DNA of 64,000 bases from Methanobacteriota archaeon (GCA_963787255.1 CAWBCJ010000001.1:80122-144121), one strand, 5' to 3'; numbered from the stretch's first letter, positions 23,854 through 31,777 are shown. A program made the numbers and translations. The notes: a model not told the origin generated them from the sequence alone.

Positions 23854-24204
23854 TTAGTGGTGTTGAATTAGCGCTATTCGGACTCCATTTGGGTCTTCTA
23901 TAAATGCAAGAAGTCCAACTGTTATTTGCATGGGTTCCATTGTGACTTTAGCACCTTTAGATTTAAGTTCTTTAATTGTAGTGTTTAAGTCTTCAACATC
24001 CATTCCTATTGAAAATAATCCAGGTTCATCTACTGGATTTTTAATGATTTCCACCATAGTTTCTCCTTCACCTTTCAATAGTGTAATTTTTCCTGCTGGT
24101 CCTAGATCGTATTGACTATCTATTTCAAATCCCATAACTTCTGTATAGAATTTAATTGACTCATCCATATCATTAACTATCATGGTAGCGTATTTAATTT
24201 TCAT
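23854..24204 (-). CDS. VOC/glyoxalase family protein
   Basis: [17 protein letters not shown]...[15 protein letters not shown]. Confidence 0.9.
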
Positions 24205-24385
24205 ATTCTTTTCACCATCCATTGATTCTATTTTTTTTCCAATCTTTTATAAAAATGGAAGCTTGTTCATTATAGCTCATTTAAATCAAATCCCATAATC
24301 AACTTTTATTTTCTATTTAATAATAAAAGAAGCAATATAATTAAATTTTTCTAATTTTTCATGAAAAATGAGTAATCCAAATAAT

Positions 24386-24421
24386 TATAGCGACCTTATG
24401 GCTAAAAATAGTCGAGTTTAA
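24386..24421. repeat. Dispersed ~36-bp imperfect palindrome, copy 1
   Basis: TATAGCGACCTTATGGCTAAAAATAGTCGAGTTTAA; matches the copies at 30298 and 30823. Confidence 0.9.
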
Positions 24422-24446
24422 GGAGTAAAAATAACAAAATTAAATT

Positions 24447-25088
24447 CTATTTTTTCTTCCTTCTTTTCTTTATAATATAATACAACACTAAGAAGATAAT
24501 AGTTAAAGTTACAATATTGCCCAACGTGGATAACTGACCCTCAAGTTCCAGATAAATGTTTCCAAAAAACCACGACAGAAGGCCCCATGCAAATATCTGC
24601 ACCATAGAACCGAAAAATGTGGTGAGAAGGTACTTTTTCAGGTCGTATTTTATTAAGCCGCAGAAGAGGTTGATGGCAATGCTAGGAATAATGGGAATGC
24701 ATCGGGCCAGAAAGATGGATAGATCATCAAAGCGGCTTTTTTTGAATCTTTTTTCGATATTAGCCACATCCTCCATTGATACCCCCATATATTTCCCGGT
24801 TCTTTCTATGAATGGTTTTTCTAATTTATAGGCCAAATAATAGTAAAATAGAGAACCTATGGTGGTTCCTAGAGAAGCAGGAATGACAATTTTTATTAAA
24901 AGAATCCCTAATGAATTGAGAGATAGGGAAACTCCTTGTAAGGTGATGAGGCTAGTTGTTATTACAATTATGCTGGCGGGGATAGGGACAATGATCTGCT
25001 CCAAAATACACCCCAAAAAGACAGCCCAAGCACCATTATTAATTATAAATGATTCTAAACCACTTAATACAGAATATAACATTATCAA
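24447..25088 (-). CDS. DedA/VTT family membrane protein
   Basis: LEQIIVPIPAS, GTTIGSLFYY, FLARCIPIIP. Confidence 0.88.
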   Translation of the reverse strand: MIMLYSVLSGLESFIINNGAWAVFLGCILEQIIVPIPASIIVITTSLITLQGVSLSLNSLGILLIKIVIPASLGTTIGSLFYYYLAYKLEKPFIERTGKYMGVSMEDVANIEKRFKKSRFDDLSIFLARCIPIIPSIAINLFCGLIKYDLKKYLLTTFFGSMVQIFAWGLLSWFFGNIYLELEGQLSTLGNIVTLTIIFLVLYYIIKKRRKKK

Positions 25089-25349
25089 ACCTCTAAATAT
25101 AGATTAATTTCTTTTTATAGATTATCCCTTGTTTTTAGTTCGTTTTATAAAGCAATAAAGTTTTTCTTCACTGGAGTTCTCTGAAAACTCTATATCATCA
25201 TCTTATAATTAGGAGTGATCCTATAATTTTTTTTTATGAATCTCCGTTTTTATTCATTAATAGATTAATGAACTTAATTTTAAGCATATCATTTTCCCTT
25301 CTTCAATCATATTATACATAGTTTTAATTCTATATTAAATATTATATAT

Positions 25350-25780
25350 TTAAATTGAATTTAACTCTTTTAATCCATTAAAAAGGAAATATACGCCTAT
25401 TATGAAAATTAAGCCTGCTGTTAAGTATTGCCCATTCTTTTGAATCCACTTATTTAATTTAGAAAGAATATCATCGGCCTTTTGGGGAACAAAAAAATAC
25501 AATAATTAAAGGTATTTCCACTAATAAAAGAGTTATTATCACCAGTACTATTAATGAAATCATTTTACTAGTCCATATTGCATCAGATAATGCTATTTCA
25601 TTACTTGCAAAAAATACCAAAACAGTAGTGATTAAATTTAAAGAAAAAAGACCCATTGCCAATAAAGCGCTGCTCCAAAATCCCAAAGCATTTCTCTCTT
25701 TTATCTGATTTTCTATTTTCTCCTTATCATAACCATAATCCTTCTTAATGACAGTTTTAATTCCAAAATAAAAAATATAT
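25350..25780 (-). pseudogene. 5'-truncated GAP/Sap-family membrane protein remnant with a frameshift near 25493
   Basis: Two frames give ...YFGIKTVIKK...AMGLFSLNLITTVL...VEIPLIIVFF / VPQKADDILSKLNKWIQKNGQYLTAGLIFIIGVYFLFNGL; no start or N-terminus found. Confidence 0.6.
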
Positions 25781-25908
25781 TAATTTTCTATAATTTTTTT
25801 GAAAATTAAATGTGGTTATCTTTTTTCAATTGTAATAAATAACATCAAAAAGTTATTATTATAATTTAAACATATGATGTTATAATCTAGTGAGAGGTGA
25901 AAAAAATC

Positions 25909-26193
25909 ATGAAATATATTGTTTTGGGGAAATGGACAGATCAGGGAAGGAAAACTACTAAAGATGCTAAAAAAAGAATTGAAACCGCACAAAATTTAGT
26001 AAAAGAACAAAATGGGAATATGAGCATTTGCTTCACCATGGGCAAATACGATTTTGTCGCAATTGTAGACATGCCCAACGAAGAGGGCATGGTAAAAGTT
26101 CTCATGAAACTTAACATTATGAACAATGTTATAACTGAAACTCTTAAAGCTTGGACCGATTCTGAGTTCGTAAAAATAGTTTCTGAACTTTAA
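25909..26193 (+). CDS. GYD-domain protein
   Basis: GAGGTGA RBS; YIVLGKWTDQG...FTMGKYDFVAIVDMP...TETLKA. Confidence 0.88.
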   Translation: MKYIVLGKWTDQGRKTTKDAKKRIETAQNLVKEQNGNMSICFTMGKYDFVAIVDMPNEEGMVKVLMKLNIMNNVITETLKAWTDSEFVKIVSEL

Positions 26194-26494
26194 TTAACAA
26201 ATTTAGCACAAAATAAAAATTACTAGCAGAGGATCATTAAATTAATAAAAGTAAGCAAAAATTAAAAATAATTGTAGGTTAAGAGTTGAATCTGAATTTG
26301 TCTAATTTAAAATCAAATTCACTCATTTTAACAATGAAATGTGCCTAATCTGGAACATTTAAATTTAATATTTTCCTTTATAAAAATGTTCTTTCAAGTC
26401 TTTAGAGTTATATTGGACAGAAGATATAATGGTCTTCTGAGTGTCTAACAAAAATCAATATCTCCAAATCCTACTATTTGGAATACCATTTTTT

Positions 26495-26581
26495 TTAACT
26501 CCTTATTTTTTTAAATTTCAAACTATAAACCAACAACATCCCCGCAACAAATGATAAATAATATCCCCACAATTCAAACAT
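26495..26581 (-). CDS. Possible 28-aa single-TM peptide (MFELWGYYLSFVAGMLLVYSLKFKKIRS)
   Basis: Purine-rich AGAGGGGCGG upstream of ATG. Its 3' end contains AAGGAG, which precedes another short ORF, inside a decayed region. Confidence 0.3.
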   Translation of the reverse strand: MFELWGYYLSFVAGMLLVYSLKFKKIRS

Positions 26582-26749
26582 TTTTAACCGCCCCTCTTGA
26601 AAATAACCAATGCTTTTCAATTATCTATTATGTCCAATTTGCATTAGCAAGTAGATTATGCTACTATTGGTTTTGTTCTATTACATATTCTTTTCGTTTT
26701 TTCATTTTGCAATTAATATCCTGGTTTCTATGAAAGCATTTTTAATTCT

Positions 26750-27050
26750 TCCATTTTAAAAATATATAAAAAATGAGCATAAGTTTCTGGTTTCATCTAC
26801 ATTTGTAGCAAGACTTAAACCTGAAAGTGGCATTCCGCCCAGTTTTTCAAAGTCAGCTTTACTAATAATTTTAACTTGTTCATCCTATTCCGAAGGGATT
26901 GTTTTCGTCTAACATTATAAATGTATTTGTAGTGTTCTATTCTGCGTTCCCGCATCTTTTTATCAATTAATATGGATACATTCTTACATTTACGTACTGT
27001 TGCATCTGTCATGTTCATTTTTAACACCGGTAATCTATAAGTGCTGTTAT
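26750..27050 (-). pseudogene. Decayed ORF fragment of unknown family
   Basis: Protein-like stretches in alternating frames (MTDATVRKCKNVSILIDKKMRERR / QVKIISKADFEKLGGMPLSGL), interrupted by stops. Confidence 0.25.
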
Positions 27051-27200
27051 TTTTAATGGGTTTGGTGTAAGAGCAGGAAAGTAAAATTTTTTTTAATATT
27101 TTTTTATGAGAATTAAATATTACTTTTAATAAATTATTTATTAATTAGTTTATATAACTAATCAGTAAATATATGCAAAAAAAATAAGAGGAGAAAGAAA

Positions 27201-27653
27201 ATGCAGAAATTAAATCATTCAATTATTATTAATGCGCCAAAAGATAAGGTTTGGCATACCATGCTCGATAATGACACCTACAGAGAATGGACAGAAGTAT
27301 TTCATGTTGGTTCACACTATGTCGGTGACTGGAGTGAAGGTAGCAAAATACTCTTCCTTGGACCTGACGAAAATGACAAGATGTCTGGAATGGTGAGCAA
27401 AATAAAAGAGAATAGGCCGTATGAATACATCTCAATTGAGCACATTGGCATCGTAGCAGATGGAAAAGAGGATACTTCGAGTAAAGAAGCTAAGGACTGG
27501 GCTGGAGCACTTGAAAATTACACATTTAAAGAAATGGATGGTAAAACTGAAGTGATGGTAGATGTGGATACAGATGATGAGTTCGTTGAGATGTTCCAGG
27601 AAATGTGGCCGAAAGCACTGCAAAAACTCAAAGAACTGGCGGAAAAAACATGA
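27201..27653 (+). CDS. SRPBCC/AHSA1 domain protein
   Basis: IIINAPKDKVW...YREWT...GDWSEGSKILF...WPKALQKLKEL; GAGGAG RBS. Confidence 0.9.
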   Translation: MQKLNHSIIINAPKDKVWHTMLDNDTYREWTEVFHVGSHYVGDWSEGSKILFLGPDENDKMSGMVSKIKENRPYEYISIEHIGIVADGKEDTSSKEAKDWAGALENYTFKEMDGKTEVMVDVDTDDEFVEMFQEMWPKALQKLKELAEKT

Positions 27654-28117
27654 GTGAAAATTTACAACAATCCCCAGAACCAAACCCTGCACTAAAGCGC
27701 CTAAATATATTGGTAGGTACATGGAGTATAAAAGGCCGTACACTTGATTCTACGGAAGATAATGTTTCTGCAAGGACTACTTTTGAGTGGTTACCTGGTG
27801 GATTCTTTCTAAAACAGACTTTTGAGGCTGATTTTGCAGGCGTAAAAATTCAGAGCTTGGAAATAATTGGTTATGACCCCTCAAGTGATACTTTCCCTTC
27901 CACTGTCTATTCCAATCTGAGTGGAGATCCGATTCCATATCGATATGATATTAAAGGCAAAGACCTAACAATCACAACAGATCTCGCTGGTGGGGCTAAA
28001 AGTACTGGGAAAATTAGTGAAGACGGGAATACATTCACCGGAGGGTGGAGACCAAAGCCCGGTAAGGAAGGCTCCGGAAATGTGGCTTATGACTATGTGG
28101 GCAAACGGGTGAAGTAG
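27650..28117 (+). CDS. DUF1579 family protein
   Basis: ATGA overlap with SRPBCC; ALKRLNILVGTW...FEWLPGGFFL...IGYDP. Confidence 0.8.
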   Translation: MSENLQQSPEPNPALKRLNILVGTWSIKGRTLDSTEDNVSARTTFEWLPGGFFLKQTFEADFAGVKIQSLEIIGYDPSSDTFPSTVYSNLSGDPIPYRYDIKGKDLTITTDLAGGAKSTGKISEDGNTFTGGWRPKPGKEGSGNVAYDYVGKRVK

Positions 28118-28187
28118 AGGTCATATTTGGCTGAATGTGCGACTTAATGGATAAAAAATAGAATAAAGTAGAATAGGAGAAATTTTA

Positions 28188-28991
28188 ATTAAAAACAAAA
28201 GTAGTTATGCTAAAGTAAACGGCCTTAATATGTATTATGAGGTCCATGGTAATGGTAAGCCATTAGTCCTGCTTCACGGCTCTTTTATGACAATTGCTCT
28301 CAACTTCGGGAAGATGATACCGGCTTTTGCCAGAGACCGGAAAGTTATCGCTATCGAGCAGCAGGGACACGGACACACTGAAGACATTGATCGTCCAGTG
28401 AGCTATGAGCAAATGGCAGATGACACGGCAGAGCTTCTTCGACAATTGGGGATCGAAAAGGCTGATATCTTGGGATACAGTCTTGGCGGCACTACTGCCA
28501 TAGAGCTTGCCATCCGCCATCCGGATCGCGTACGTAAATTGGTGATTATTTCGGCACCGTATAAGAGGGAGGGTTGGTATCCGGAATACTATCCAACGAT
28601 GGAGAGTCTCACTCCCGAGATGCTTATAGGTTCAGGACTTCCGGAAGCATATGCAGACGTAGCTCCAAATCCAGATAATTGGGCAAAACTAGTTGAAAAA
28701 TTCAAAAAACTTGGCGTAGAATTCATCGGTAGAACGCCTGAGGAATTTCAATCGATCAAAGCTCCAACTCTGATTATGATTGGGGATTCAGATAGCGTTC
28801 CTCCCGAAAAAGCTGTTGAAATGTTTAAATTGCTTGGGGGTGGGGTATTCGGAGATATCGTTGGGCTCCCACGTTCTCAACTTGCAGTTATCCCCGGTAC
28901 TAATCACGTTGGCGTAATGGAACGGGCTGATTGGTGGATTCCAATGATTAAAGAGTTTCTTGATAAGCCTATGGAATCAGAGGGCTCCTAA
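28188..28991 (+). CDS. Alpha/beta hydrolase; RBS-aligned start is ATT at 28188, first ATG at 28230
   Basis: LVLLHG, QGHG, nucleophile GYSLG, GDSD, PGTNH. The conserved YAKVNGLNMYYE starts upstream of the ATG. Confidence 0.88.
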   Translation: MKNKSSYAKVNGLNMYYEVHGNGKPLVLLHGSFMTIALNFGKMIPAFARDRKVIAIEQQGHGHTEDIDRPVSYEQMADDTAELLRQLGIEKADILGYSLGGTTAIELAIRHPDRVRKLVIISAPYKREGWYPEYYPTMESLTPEMLIGSGLPEAYADVAPNPDNWAKLVEKFKKLGVEFIGRTPEEFQSIKAPTLIMIGDSDSVPPEKAVEMFKLLGGGVFGDIVGLPRSQLAVIPGTNHVGVMERADWWIPMIKEFLDKPMESEGS

Positions 28992-29272
28992 GTAATGCCT
29001 GAAACCTGAAATAAATTACAAAATTTAGAATTAATAGAATCTCATGAAAGTGTTTATAGTATTTCAGAACCTATTTTTGAAAGCTTGGCTTAAAAAAAGA
29101 ATACGATGAAAAAATTGTTTTTCCAAGGAAATAACCACCCCGAACATGGAAAACAGTTGGTAGAATTTATAAAAAGACTAAATGAACTCTAGTGGACTTA
29201 TATTTCATTTACCCAATAGCTAAACGATTTTTTACTTGTTAATATAATATGAAATAAATGAGGAATAAAATT

Positions 29273-30077
29273 ATGATTGAAAGAAAAGGTAAATACGCCA
29301 ACGTGAATGGAATGAAAATGTATTATGAAGTTTCCGGCAAGGGCGATCCACTAATCGTATTGCACGGTGCTTACATGAACATAATATCAATGGGAGAAAT
29401 AATCCCCAGGCTCGCTAGGACCCACAAGGTCTATGCGCTCGAATTCCAGGGCCATGGTCGGACCACTGACATTGACCGCCCCATCACCTATCCGAACCTG
29501 GCAGACGATGTAGCTGCTTTTATGGACGCGGTAGGTCTTAAGAAAGCTGATGTATTCGGTTATTCCGTGGGTGCTGAGGTCGGATTGCAACTCGCCATCC
29601 GCTACCCAGAGAAGGTGAGCAGACTTATCGCAGCCTGAGGCGCCTACGATCTTGAAGGTTGGCAGCCGGAGTTCAAGGCAGCTATCCCGCAAATGACCGT
29701 TGAGATGATTGTCAATCTGCCATTCGCTGAAGACTATCGTAAGCTTGCGCCTGATCCAGATGGTTTCCCCGCTCCTTGTGGAGAAGCTGATAGCTCTCGA
29801 GAAGGAGCCGATGGCATGGGAAGACGGATATCAGGGCTTTGAAGACCCCGGTACTGATTATCGCTGGAGATGCAGATGGGTAACGCTCGAACATTCGATC
29901 GCCCTGTTTCGGTTGCTCGGTGGAGGCATTATGGGTGATATGGGAAAACCCTTACCTGATTCACGTCTTGCAATTATGCCGGCAACATCGCATACGGCTG
30001 TCATTACTCAGACCGATCTTTTAATCGCTTTCATTGAACCTTTCCTGAAAGGAGAAACGCCAAAGGGATTTTTTTAA
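29273..30077 (+). pseudogene. Alpha/beta hydrolase paralog disrupted by an internal TGA (29636-29638) and frameshifts
   Basis: KYANVNGMKMYYE, QGHG, GYSVG; the C-terminal FRLLGGG.MGD...LAIMPATSH is in another frame; visibly GC-richer than its flanks. Confidence 0.75.
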
Positions 30078-30297
30078 AATAGACTTTGGGGAAGGCAGAT
30101 ATTAATGGATTTCATGGAAGCAACACAAATTAGGTGCTAAATGCAGTAAATAAACATTAAATGTAGAAGAAACCTTTTATTCATTTAGACAATTTGAAGC
30201 TAAAGGATTAGCAGTTTTAACAAAAGGATCCCAGCTGAAAAAAAATAAGATTCGTTATGAGAACATAGGTTTAATATGAATTATTGAATTTCTTCTC

Positions 30298-30333
30298 TAT
30301 AACGACCATGTGGCTAAAGATAGTCGAGTTTAA
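30298..30333. repeat. Dispersed ~36-bp imperfect palindrome, copy 2
   Basis: TATAACGACCATGTGGCTAAAGATAGTCGAGTTTAA. Confidence 0.9.
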
Positions 30334-30456
30334 AGAAGTGATTAATTCTTCAAAATAGCATGGAAATTTATCTCAAATAATATAATAAAAAATATAAATT
30401 TATTATTACTAGTTTTAACATAACCAATATTACAATATTTTATGTGAGGTGAAAAC

Positions 30457-30735
30457 ATGATTTATTTAATTGGAGAGCTAAAAGTCGAAAATTATGATAA
30501 ATGGAAGCCCATTTTTAATGAAAGAGCAACTGCACGTAAAGAAAGCGGCGAAGAAGAAGCTCATCTCTTCCGTAACTCCGACGACCCCCATGACGTTGAG
30601 ATTATATTTAAGTGGGACAATAAGGAAAATGCAAAAAAGTACATGGAATCAAAATCCGTACAAAAAGTTCTAAACAATGTAGGCGCCAAAATAGAAAGAG
30701 TTACTTACCTTGATGAAATAGAAAAAACAATTTAA
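30457..30735 (+). CDS. Small dimeric alpha-beta-barrel (ABM/cyclase-like) protein
   Basis: GAGGTGA RBS; KVENYDKWKPIF...LFRNSDDPHDV.IIFKWD. Confidence 0.75.
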   Translation: MIYLIGELKVENYDKWKPIFNERATARKESGEEEAHLFRNSDDPHDVEIIFKWDNKENAKKYMESKSVQKVLNNVGAKIERVTYLDEIEKTI

Positions 30736-30822
30736 TATAAATTCTATGGATGAATATTATTTCTAAAGGAATATAGAAACCTATTCATCTATAATCCTTT
30801 ATTTTAATTAATTACAGAAAAC

Positions 30823-30860
30823 TATAAACGACCAATACGGCTAAAAAATAGTCGAGTTTA
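30823..30860. repeat. Dispersed ~36-bp imperfect palindrome, copy 3
   Basis: TATAAACGACCAATACGGCTAAAAAATAGTCGAGTTTA. Confidence 0.9.
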
Positions 30861-30905
30861 GCGAAGCAAATAAACATAAAAACTAAAGAAAGATTTATAT
30901 ATTTT

Positions 30906-31777
30906 TTAATCTGCTGAAAAAAATCTTCGCAGTTCTTGTGCGATGATTTCCGGCTTGCCATAGTCTTGTGCTGATCCATGATCAAGACCTTCTAATTCAA
31001 TGCGATTAGAGTTGGGCAAGACTTTTTCCAGGGCATCAAGAGTGTCTTTAAATGCATCCCGACTTTTACTTCCCATCATTAATAAAACCTCTGCAGATAC
31101 ATCTTTGTAATCTTCAATTGTTCCTTCGGTTTTTCTAACAAGTTCTATTTCAGAGGGCATTGTAGGAATAAGATCTCGAAGCGGTACATCATCGCCTTTA
31201 ACGTTCCTGGCATCCAATATTAATGCAATTTTGGAAAATGATGTCAATAAGAAACGCGGCAACCAGTAAATAGATTTAGGCGACTGTGCACCTTTTATAC
31301 CAGTTACCATGGCATCAGCCACTTTACCTTCAGCCACTTCCCGGCCAAAACGATGCATGGTAGATTCTAATAGATCCAGTTCTGGTTGGCCAAGATAAAA
31401 GAGCGGCTCATAAGCAGCAACCTTCCAGATAGCCAGATTAGAGATTGCAGCATGCAGTGCAAATAATGCACCGTCCGCTGTTCCAAAGACATAGTGCGCC
31501 CCTGTTTTTTTAAGAGTGCATCCAGGTCTTCATCTTCCCTTTCTATACCGTAGTCCTCGCCAATTGGTCCACTTAAACCACGGCCACGGCGATCTGGAAT
31601 ATAAACTGTAAATGCATCTGAAAGTAAGGTACCGAGCTTCATAAGATGTTGTGATGCATTTATACCTCCATGCAGGAGAATAACACCTTGACCATTGCCC
31701 ATTTGCCTGTATCCAATGGTAGTTCCATCTTTTGAAGTTACAGAATCTGTTGTGTATTTTTGTTTTGTATTACTCAT
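30906..31777 (-). CDS. Alpha/beta hydrolase fold protein, frameshifted at a homopolymer near 31508
   Basis: SKDGTTIGY, LLHGG, DRRGRGLS; after the shift it reads TGAHYVFGTADGALFAL...YEP and joins ORF 30906-31358 (LDHG). Confidence 0.75.

Follow-up and report, generated by a model that had tools for sequence, protein, structure and literature searches.

Three short repeats lie among small accessory genes at this Methanobacteriota locus, and they raise the question of whether they are recombination sites of a gene-cassette array and, if so, of which enzyme would act on them. The locus belongs to a window of 64,000 nucleotides, the whole stretch of DNA that was analysed. On balance, and from comparison of sequences, we favour the reading that the repeats are recombination sites associated with cassettes, in a chromosomal cassette array that lacks an integrase and occurs across Methanobacterium, with XerA as the most likely enzyme. 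The layout is integron-like but without its own integrase, and it may borrow the recombinase that resolves the host chromosome.

Results

Anatomy and distribution of the site family

The first-pass annotation had described three co-oriented copies sharing TATA, CGACC and GGCTAAA blocks, and both the copies and the common blocks were recovered (Table 1). Its invariant 13-mer, ATAGTCGAGTTTA, has exactly three matches in the window, all on the plus strand, a result reached by 0 of 100 dinucleotide-preserving shuffles; at up to two mismatches the same three sites are found, yet 31 of 100 shuffles then give three matches. Direct comparison of copies defines a family consensus of ~42 bp, in which a left part P (TATARCGACC-N4-GGCTAAAAATA) is followed by a 6-bp centre O (GTCGAG) and a right arm B' (TTTAACGAA). 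The left part of copy 3 carries 1-nt insertions, and the right arm of copy 2 is non-consensus, of the same kind that borders the ABM cassette at its left in four other genomes. Two direct TAACGA half-sites, spaced by ~31 bp, and an A/T-rich box are also part of the site. Of the 86 copies compared, only 32 match GTCGAG exactly at the centre and 57 match it within one mismatch, and many copies would therefore be poor recombination partners. GGCTAAA, the most conserved block of the site, is not an arm of XerA type and counts against the favoured reading.

The earlier statement that no copy lies outside the accessory stretch holds for the window and fails for its genome, where ~22 copies are spread over 12 contigs, 21 of them outside any ORF of at least 60 aa. 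The sites are present in 19 of 22 other Methanobacterium genomes and in none of 14 genomes from other genera of the same taxonomic family. Outside that family a single weak match was found among 24 genomes, while a second family sample of 70 genomes gave only single weak matches in five genomes from four other genera.

The copies had also been read as imperfect palindromes folding into attC-like bulged hairpins. Neither property was found: self-complementarity is limited to CGAC/GTCG, the consensus fold of 22 copies reaches -0.62 kcal/mol with 0 covarying pairs, and z values of -0.78 to +0.44 against shuffles were obtained when either strand of each copy in the window was folded as single-stranded DNA. 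No integron integrase was detected near copies, arrays or heads, and the Phage_integrase matches of genome G000, on contigs C26, C18, C24 and C17, are not near any copy. The alternative hint of a Xer/dif relationship proved the better lead.

Table 1. Sites, site parts, genes and intervals at the locus, in window coordinates.
Feature	Position	Strand	Basis or content
VOC/glyoxalase gene	23854-24222	-	Pfam; start 164 nt left of copy 1
Site copy 1	24386-24427	+	Sequence match
Copy 1 left part, TATAGCGACC-TTAT-GGCTAAAAATA	24386-24410		
Copy 1 centre, GTCGAG	24411-24416		
Copy 1 right arm, TTTAAGGAGTA	24417-24427		
Multi-gene interval, copies 1 to 2	24417-30328	+	DedA/VTT through split hydrolase
DedA/VTT gene	24447-25088	-	Pfam
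SRPBCC/AHSA1	27201-27653		Pfam
DUF1579	27605-28117		Pfam
Alpha/beta hydrolase	28230-28991		Pfam
Split hydrolase	29258-29638 plus 29709-30077		Pfam
Site copy 2	30298-30339	+	Sequence match
Copy 2 left part	30298-30322		
Copy 2 centre, GTCGAG	30323-30328		
Copy 2 right arm, TTTAAAGAAGT	30329-30339		
Putative single-gene cassette	30329-30856	+	Copy 2 right arm, ABM-like gene, copy 3 left part and centre
ABM-like gene	30457-30735		Pfam
Site copy 3	30823-30867	+	Sequence match
Copy 3 centre, GTCGAG	30851-30856		
Copy 3 right arm, TTTAGCGAAGC	30857-30867		
Split alpha/beta-hydrolase-like gene	31367-31777 plus 30906-31358	-	Right of copy 3

Genes and modules of the window

The first site has the VOC/glyoxalase gene as its upstream module. 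The end of copy 1 lies 24 nt before the DedA/VTT stop, close to it as had been noted, and the interval that this gene opens is either one large module or several modules with decayed sites. Copies 2 and 3 do enclose a single gene, the ABM-like one. The placement of copy 3 near a stop is borne out at ~45 nt from that of the adjoining minus-strand ORF. This ORF has no Pfam match and resembles the C-terminal part of a hydrolase split in two, with the N-terminal half to its right; the split gene ends 39 nt to the right of the copy 3 right arm. Homologues of the 3' end of this split hydrolase occur 2–13 kb upstream of arrays in G005, G020, G019 and G002. Pfam bears out the cargo families named previously, i.e. 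VOC, DedA, SRPBCC/AHSA1, DUF1579, alpha/beta hydrolases (two of them split) and ABM, with GYD left out. The ABM cassette recurs from site to site in G017 and G020 at 83–84% identity with other neighbours, and is partly matched in G013, G011 and G018, where the neighbours, as far as mapped, differ.

Polar arrays and the head palindrome

Array polarity is seen directly: neighbouring copies are co-oriented in 45 of 50 cases (binomial 4e-9), in agreement with the claim that the sites are arrayed facing one way. The median spacing is 1374 bp, and 21 of 45 inter-copy intervals hold exactly one ORF. Upstream of the array, 12 of the 23 genus genomes carry exactly one GTCGAG-centred palindrome, a 28-bp head site of 11-6-11 organization, B-O-B', that reads ACTTCGTTATA-GTCGAG-TTTAACGAAGT. 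Head and copies are on one contig in 11 genomes, and in all of these the copy closest to the head is downstream of it, co-oriented and 0.2–21.6 kb away. Upstream of six array heads no copy is present in the DNA covered, which extends over at least 16 kb in G005 and G020 and 5–9 kb in the other four. The head has the centre and right arm in common with the copies (model positions 27–44; 17–20 bp) and nothing else. The head palindrome has the geometry of a tyrosine-recombinase core or dif site, and it is this element, not the repeat, that is dif-like.

The genome of the window contains no GTCGAG head at up to five mismatches, and the local array is therefore without a visible landing site. In G014 the head is placed 0.70 Mb (79 degrees) from cdc6-1 and 0.57 Mb from xerA, which is not a terminus-like position. 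A Pfam scan of the ORFs beside six heads revealed no recombinase domain.

Behaviour at module joints

The joints were observed directly by comparing pairs among the 86 copies that come from different genomes and have at least one homologous 120-nt flank. Of the 61 informative pairs, 29 are homologous at the upstream flank alone, 30 at the downstream flank alone and 2 on both sides, so that in 59 of 61 the homology between genomes is lost within the site. Flank homology reaches the edges of the site and ends there, with the left part linked to the upstream module and the right arm to the module downstream. Four genomes share a 349-aa module and a near-identical P followed by four different centres, arms and downstream modules, and five ABM cassettes have the non-consensus right arm at their left border and P parts that differ. 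A 210-aa cassette is preceded by the head in one genome and by P-type sites in two more, its homology beginning at ..AAG-TTTAACGAAAT. In soil metagenomes, contigs of related strains cease to match the window at either edge of copy 2 (30298 and 30332/30337). These data support the proposal that the sites are joints between independently assorting gene modules, and the pattern fits serial site-specific insertion.

The whole island is shuffled. At 293 motif-less intergenic points of the same loci, 66 of 79 informative pairs are also one-sided, which leaves the motif with only a modest excess (Fisher p = 0.013). Two near-identical contigs differ by a 9.3-kb indel that has one end exactly at the left edge of a site and the other end at a point without a site. 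No contig assembled from four soil runs joins 30303 to 30828 as excision would, and no recombination product, circle or clean gain or loss was seen. Neither of the two refuting outcomes named in the first-pass annotation was seen. Both flanks are kept in only 2 of 61 pairs, which is not the arrangement of copies fixed beside conserved core genes in kept synteny, and there is no constant spacing to gene starts that would indicate a fixed distance to a promoter. A REP/MITE-like repeat, a hairpin-former placed in intergenic DNA that is conserved otherwise, does not match the lack of a fold and the same low count of pairs with both flanks conserved.

Recombinases and the palindrome family

In the recombinase census, a direct count, an orthologue of XerA is encoded in 22 of the 23 genus genomes, and no other recombinase was found throughout the genus. 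The relatives of known structure that match it best (PDB entries 4a8e and 5hxy) are the XerA proteins of P. abyssi (5e-50) and T. acidophilum (6e-41). A second integrase family has a patchy distribution and serine recombinases occur in 3 of 23 genomes; across these 23 genomes no member of the three groups lies beside an array.

Archaeal dif sites are described, in the sections of the sources available, as 28-bp elements with 11-bp imperfect inverted repeats and a 6-bp spacer (11-6-11) in which TAA(N)6-8TTA is the most conserved feature (PMC8371274, PMC11840125) and serves as part of the criterion (PMC11840125). The arms TTCGTTAAA-N6-TTTAACGAA read TAA-N8-TTA and match this pattern. Of 71 family genomes, 52 contain palindromes built of these arms (0–1 matches for a reversed control). 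An arm spacing of 6 is strongly preferred (14 matches in G000 vs 0–3 for each other spacing from 3 to 9), and the palindromes are missing or single where the XerA orthologue is at most 62% identical or not found, a link that is confounded by phylogeny. In 8 of 10 genomes such a palindrome lies 3.7–15.5 kb from xerA. The head is dif-like, but the member near xerA is a different palindrome. There are 7–11 palindromes per genome at up to two mismatches, a number that is unlike a unique dif and would also be in keeping with a transcription factor; a single copy is seen for the GTCGAG class only.

Discussion

A model for the arrays and its alternatives

Strand exchange, circular intermediates and the identity of the enzyme are what we infer for these arrays. 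A circular module with one P-O-B' site would recombine with the head palindrome at the centre, and insertion would restore the palindrome at the upstream end and leave the module followed by its own P-O. Repeated insertion would build a co-oriented array, and recombination between any two sites could excise or reshuffle modules. Host XerA would be the most likely enzyme, with a secondary dif-like site as its substrate in the manner of bacterial IMEX elements and dif modules, although XerA is the least certain step of the proposal. A bolder version, possible but doubtful, would make the locus a gene-capture platform without a dedicated integrase: XerA would insert circles carrying the 42-bp site into a secondary dif-like landing pad that the GTCGAG centre insulates from the true dif, and palindromes with other centres across Methanobacteriaceae would be further pads whose specificity is coded by the centre.

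The sites could instead be regulatory modules of a stress/detoxification regulon (MFS pumps, TetR, hydrolases, VOC), with shuffling due to other causes, whether as an operator with a TATA-like box or as a terminator or insulator; the TAACGA half-sites would then be bound by the factor of the family-wide palindrome. The half-sites and the A/T-rich box suit such a role, and the palindrome TTCGTTAWA-N6-TWTAACGAA, present 1–15 times per genome, shows the conservation expected of a regulon operator (25 of 27 genera). Some leftward genes start 39–70 nt from the left edge of the site, where the minus strand reads GGTCGYTATA, a minus-strand T5 run faces many genes ending beside the right arm, and TetR genes are frequent among the cargo, a family of nine being present in the arrays examined. 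However, of the 86 copies 31 are found where the ends of two genes converge and just 14 in the promoter regions of diverging genes; the median distance to a gene end is 69 nt, whereas gene starts are at medians of 134–169 nt and widely spread (41–458 nt to the left, 18–699 nt to the right), with no fixed promoter or operator position. Site orientation follows the array and not the adjoining genes (45/50), the two halves of a site are inherited with different neighbours, as those of a unit promoter or terminator would not be, and the single head palindrome at the array start is left unexplained. We consider a regulatory role unlikely. Still less probable is that the sites are selfish or neutral repeats and that homologous recombination between 40-bp repeats, with no site-specific enzyme, shuffles the modules. 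Crossovers inside a shared repeat would also give one-sided homology and split linkage, motif-less gaps of the island are shuffled too, and no dedicated recombinase was found. Yet the site sequence is kept across species whose flanks are unalignable, which therefore points to selection for a function; the co-orientation is strict; the overlap of 17–20 bp with the head is too short for efficient homologous exchange, although the head is always upstream; and linkage breaks near the centre and not in the longer left part.

A classical integron, in which attC sites are recombined as folded single strands by an IntI integrase, would account for co-oriented sites after one or a few small accessory genes and for a distinct head site, and archaeal integrons are known, with one cassette in a Methanobacteriota MAG among those in the available part of the source (PMC9668308). 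The sites do not fold, however, and have no R''/L''-L'/R' symmetry; they are conserved in sequence and not in structure, cargo genes often lie on the opposite strand, and no integrase is present beside the six Pfam-scanned heads or near any array. This reading is largely refuted, and we give it next to no weight.

Little is known of how methanogens acquire and reshuffle accessory genes. A polar array with precise module borders and a dif-like head is present in cultured, complete Methanobacterium genomes, and the question is therefore directly testable with two short DNA sites and a single purified protein, XerA. Should XerA prove to be the enzyme, the principle of IMEX and dif modules would hold in Archaea as well, a secondary dif-like site could serve as a safe gene-capture locus, and methanogen genetics would gain a natural tool for site-specific integration. 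If the landing-pad version is true, integrons would have an archaeal counterpart in Xer-driven cassette exchange. Should XerA prove not to be the enzyme, the strongly conserved 42-bp site would point to an unknown DNA-binding or recombination activity.

Comparison with known systems

The head and the related palindromes resemble archaeal XerA/dif in being imperfect inverted repeats of 11-6-11 form whose inner arms read TAA..TTA. Unlike archaeal dif, several palindromes occur per genome, each with a different centre, and the head is far from xerA and not opposite cdc6. The closest parallel in site design is IMEX (TLC-phi, the gonococcal genetic island, EludIMEX-1), which have no integrase of their own and rely on host Xer. 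The element site of IMEX is described, in the available part of the source, as having one arm and the central region in common with its target and a divergent other arm (PMC5357621), and P-O-B' relates to the head B-O-B' exactly as such a site to its target. Tandem co-oriented arrays can build up at the target in both. In contrast to IMEX, the target here would be a secondary palindrome with its own centre and not the likely dif (the xerA-proximal palindrome), the elements are 0.5–6-kb gene modules instead of phages or islands, and the host is an archaeon with a single XerA. The available text of a 2021 review of archaeal tyrosine recombinases does not use the term IMEX (PMC8371274).

The dif (pdif) modules of Acinetobacter, on plasmids and chromosomes, are likewise small modules of accessory genes, bounded by Xer-type sites, found in varied contexts and, as described in the parts of the sources available, thought to be moved by host XerC/D (PMC6449649, PMC13141974, PMC12907356). 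The modules described here resemble them in that the same module is found in different contexts with its borders at sites. They differ in that their sites are co-oriented (45/50), the full palindrome is at the head only and the arrays are chromosomal. The pdif sites are full 28-bp sites in alternating orientation around each module.

The archaeal integrons reported so far, as far as the available part of the source extends, are classical IntI/attC systems of uncultured MAGs only (PMC9668308). Unlike integrons, be they sedentary chromosomal ones or archaeal integrons and CALINs (Ghaly et al. 2022), the arrays have no IntI and no single-strand hairpin; the site is a sequence-defined 42 bp, and the cargo often has its own promoters and lies on either strand. 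Like integrons, they are polar arrays that start from one special attI-like site and have one site per cassette, and the cassette border falls inside the site, the last part of which belongs to the next cassette. The repeats of Vibrio integrons are highly alike within a lineage, and so are the sites of these arrays.

The site in the window

The three copies of the site lie on the plus strand at the positions that the first-pass annotation had given them, and align as TATARCGACC-N4-GGCTAAAAATA-GTCGAG-TTTAACGAA, about 42 bp in all. The 13-mer ATAGTCGAGTTTA has three exact occurrences in the 64-kb window, each on the plus strand, a result reached in none of 100 dinucleotide-preserving shuffles; allowing two mismatches reveals no further site, and this looser test is not significant, with 31 of 100 shuffles reaching three matches. 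The gene context described earlier was likewise recovered. The stop of a minus-strand DedA/VTT gene lies 24 nt from the end of copy 1, about 45 nt separate copy 3 from the stop of a minus-strand ORF that is one of the two halves of a split hydrolase, copies 2 and 3 enclose one ABM-like gene, and the cargo families checked, all but GYD, match the names proposed for them. The copies had also been described as imperfect palindromes folding into hairpins, but their self-complementarity is limited to CGAC/GTCG, the consensus fold of 22 copies reaches -0.62 kcal/mol without covariation and no copy folds better than its shuffles on either strand (z from -0.78 to +0.44). Rfam gave no match at or near the sites in the window, and tRNA-type att sites were ruled out because no tRNA is present at the places checked.

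Two alpha/beta-hydrolase-like genes of the window are each split into two ORFs, as decaying cargo. The 3' end of one of them, just downstream of copy 3, has homologues 2-13 kb upstream of arrays or head palindromes in G005, G020, G019 and G002; the locus is syntenic, and its arrangement in the window differs from that in these four genomes.

Locations of the features discussed (G, genome, G000 being that of the window; C, contig; L, fetched locus)
Feature	Location	Strand	Remark
Site, copy 1	window 24386-24427	+	
Site, copy 2	window 30298-30339	+	
Site, copy 3	window 30823-30867	+	
ABM-like gene	window 30457-30735		
Split hydrolase-like gene 1	window 29258-30077	+	126+122 aa
Split hydrolase-like gene 2	window 30906-31777	-	136+150 aa
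3' end of split hydrolase with homologues near arrays	window 30917-31000		
Near-identical contig loci	L007/L008 (G000:C22), L009/L010 (G000:C9), L013 (G000:C18)		
Single copy in another genus	G069 L126:1480-1560		
Tandem hairpin tract	G018 L059:13186-13645		
Small TRAM-domain genes	L001:3220-3432, L060, L013:2691-2915, L106:1993-2229		70-78 aa
Family palindromes	L105:2323-2346 (G000:C25:296822), L102:2162, L103:1607, L104:2603, L106:2488, L107:2429		
TTCGYCATA palindromes near xerA	G005:C2:762885, G009:C8:326433, G020:C2:173124, G002:C1:825344, G019:C1:1241432, G014:C1:1283619, G022:C1:443634, G017:C2:84506		

Distribution of the site

The window occupies C1:80122-144121 of its genome, G000, which contains McrA and is therefore that of a methanogen. 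A profile search returns about 22 sites in it, clustered and co-oriented on contigs C1, C9, C22 and C8, of which 21 lie outside any ORF of at least 60 aa and one falls within a questionable ORF of 65 aa. This copy number is somewhat inflated, since contamination is 4.6% and contigs C9, C22 and C18 are in parts 92-99% identical over kilobases, a likeness that reflects either strain mixture or recent duplication. A sequence-only covariance model finds matches in 19 of 22 other Methanobacterium genomes, in none of 14 genomes from the family's other genera and, as one weak match, in a single genome among 24 from outside the family. A second sample of 70 family genomes provided single weak matches only, in five genomes of four genera, and these look genuine. 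An exact-pattern scan of genome contigs gave three matches only, from Methanobacterium and Methanobacteriaceae, and a viral contig collection contained no match to the site. The single copy in G069, a genome of another genus, carries a full palindrome with a reverse-complement centre ahead of the repeat, in the order ACTTCGTTTAA-CTCGAC-ATAATGACTAT and then ATGGCTAAAACTA-GTCGAG-TTTGCGA, which suggests that the first block of the repeat, TATAACGAC, is itself the right arm of a second site.

Array organization and the head palindrome

In the related genomes the copies form polar arrays. A 25-kb stretch of G017 harbours 12 copies, every one on the plus strand, and G005, G020, G022 and G014 hold four to six co-oriented copies each. 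Over all fetched loci neighbouring copies are co-oriented in 45 of 50 cases (binomial 4e-9), their median spacing is 1374 bp and 21 of 45 intervals contain exactly one ORF. The upstream end of six fetched arrays is marked by a sequence that matches only the right third of the model. This head is a 28-bp palindrome, ACTTCGTTATA-GTCGAG-TTTAACGAAGT, with 11-bp arms and a 6-bp centre, and 12 of 23 genus genomes have a single palindrome with this centre. Wherever head and copies share a contig (11 of 11 genomes) the closest copy follows downstream of the head in the same orientation, at a distance of 0.2-21.6 kb, and no copy is present in the DNA fetched upstream of the six array heads retrieved at length. 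The head shares only its centre and right arm with the repeat, which is thus a hybrid of a private left part (P) and, after it, the centre (O) and right arm (B') of the head.

The genome of the window has no GTCGAG head, even with up to 5 mismatches allowed, and G001 has the head palindrome and no copies. G001 was considered as an empty site and set aside: the genes that follow its head have other positions in G020, G005, G019 and G000, and no clean before/after comparison emerges. In G018 the head and the right arm of the first cassette are separated by an ORF-free tract of about 320 nt, made up of short perfect hairpins in tandem.

Module junctions at the site

The ABM cassette of the window, the single-gene unit between copies 2 and 3, recurs from site to site in G017 and, at C1:638091-638623, in G020, with 83-84% identity, with partial matches in G013, G011 and G018, and its neighbours differ wherever gene order was mapped (G017, G020 and G018). 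The flanks of 86 copies were compared, each copy being paired with every copy of another genome (120-nt flanks, local score of at least 35, null maximum 29). Of 61 informative pairs, 29 share the upstream flank only, 30 the downstream flank only and 2 both. In an ungapped identity profile the homology of the shared side reaches the edges of the site while the other side stays at background. Within the site, the first bases of P track the upstream flank, and position 3 of the centre together with the first arm bases tracks the downstream flank. Individual modules behave in the same manner: a module encoding 349 aa is common to four genomes together with a near-identical P, and the centres, arms and downstream modules that follow are all different; the left border of five ABM cassettes is formed by a right arm that departs from the consensus, and their P parts differ; and the homology of a 210-aa cassette, which is preceded by the head in G018 and by P-type sites in G014 and G022, begins at ..AAG-TTTAACGAAAT. 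Thus, the module consists of B', content and P, with the joint at or in the centre. Soil-run contigs of related strains (four runs) also part from the window sequence at the two edges of copy 2, positions 30298 and 30332/30337. We infer that recombination takes place at the sites.

A REP- or MITE-type insertion is expected to leave both flanks conserved, as found in only 2 of the 61 pairs, and was rejected. As a control, 293 intergenic points without the motif were taken from these loci; they gave 79 informative pairs, 66 of them one-sided as well. The islands are thus shuffled throughout, and the excess of one-sidedness at the motif over this control is modest (p = 0.013). Gene-family adjacency was discarded as a control, being too noisy because of paralogues. 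The centre is exactly GTCGAG in only 32 of 86 copies. A regulatory element of promoter or terminator type is kept alive as an explanation by the A/T-rich box of the site, its two direct TAACGA half-sites, a T5 run on the minus strand, leftward genes starting 39-70 nt from the left edge and the almost invariant GGCTAAA block, a feature that recombination models do not require. Against such a role, the 86 copies include 31 at convergent gene ends, 22 and 15 at co-directional positions and 14 at divergent starts, gene ends lie at a median of 69 nt from the site while gene starts are widely scattered (medians 134-169 nt), and copy orientation tracks the array and not the genes.

Structural variants were also compared. 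Between C22 and C9 (95% identical), a 9.3-kb indel has one end at the left edge of a site, with no second site for it to pair with. Two further differences, a 2.1-kb indel and an inversion of 690 bp, the latter bounded by the 9-bp inverted repeat ATTTTTGAA, are unrelated to the site. Among public runs, parts of the window are present only in assembled soil-metagenome contigs (best share 0.34); none of these skips 30303-30828, a result that is silent on rare circles. One contig in each of four soil runs displays a go-back joint, 30397-TT-30140, around copy 2, which may reflect a tandem duplication or some other layout in related strains. Related-strain contigs skip the 567 bp of 25220-25788 with 13 nt of microhomology (two runs) and others join 24204 to 26307, possibly with intervening DNA (three runs); both variants are structural and unrelated to the repeat.

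Candidate recombinase and dif

No Phage_integrase match lies near any copy in the genome of the window or near the arrays of the 23 genus genomes. Head-adjacent ORFs were considered as a hidden recombinase and encode DUF2207_C, Schlafen/AlbA_2 and unknown proteins of 339, 420 and 421 aa, none with a recombinase domain; the first two of the unknown proteins, 88% alike, stand beside the head only in G005, G014 and, by flank homology, G003, and have no homologue in G000. Also rejected were serine recombinases, found in only 3 of 23 genomes, and a second, patchy tyrosine recombinase family (378 aa, on C18), which that query did not find in the motif-bearing G004 and G021 and which is present in the motif-less G009. 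The sole universal candidate is a protein of 330-345 aa in 22 of 23 genus genomes, whose best solved relatives are the XerA proteins of P. abyssi (5e-50) and T. acidophilum (6e-41).

The arms of the head belong to a wider family of palindromes, TTCGTTAWA-N6-TWTAACGAA (11-6-11), with differing centres. In G000 the palindrome occurs 14 times at spacing 6 and 0-3 times at every other spacing from 3 to 9. It is found in 52 of 71 family genomes and 25 of 27 genera, at 1-15 copies each (7-11 per Methanobacterium genome; reversed control 0-1), and the centres GAATTG, TCTAGC and GTAC[CA]G recur across genera. Seven generic palindromes have neither an Rfam match nor an RNA gene nearby. Directly after the GAATTG palindrome, G000 is about 1.7 kb (two genes) longer than G019, and no half-site is present at the far end of this segment. 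Small genes of 70-78 aa, which from reading their sequences we take to encode TRAM domains, recur beside the repeat as well as beside the generic palindromes.

In 8 of 10 genomes, all but G000 and the fragmented G001, a family member whose arm is the variant TTCGYCATA is found at 3.7-15.5 kb from xerA, the gene of the candidate enzyme; about 1 in 10 per genome is expected from density, and the places are syntenic and therefore not independent. Where the XerA orthologue is at most 62% identical or was not found, genomes hold 0-1 palindromes, and where it is at least 64% identical nearly all hold several, a trend that is confounded by phylogeny. Archaeal dif has an 11-6-11 layout with cleavage at the spacer borders and at times adjoins xerA (PMC8371274, PMC5357621); its best-conserved element is TAA(N)6-8TTA, and T. 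acidophilum carries two sites that XerA binds (PMC11840125). Thus the palindrome close to xerA is probably the chromosomal dif of Methanobacterium, with the array head as a putative secondary dif-like site. The distances of the head in G014 are 0.57 Mb to xerA and 0.70 Mb to cdc6-1.

Comparison with known systems

Neither the 42-bp site nor Xer-type cassettes in archaea were found described in the literature searched, where the arm sequences returned unrelated primers only; a term search of a 2021 review of archaeal tyrosine recombinases (PMC8371274) gave no occurrence of IMEX, the Xer-exploiting integrative element. Published archaeal integrons are classical IntI/attC elements in MAGs (PMC9668308). 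The polarity and cassette borders of integrons are alike here, and the position of the joint, at or in the centre, is comparable to that of integron cassettes; IntI and attC folding were both tested for and neither was found. An IMEX site shares one arm and the centre with dif and diverges in the other arm (PMC5357621), the same relation as that of the site to the head. Module behaviour also resembles that of the dif modules of Acinetobacter. Those modules are bounded by full, inversely oriented sites.
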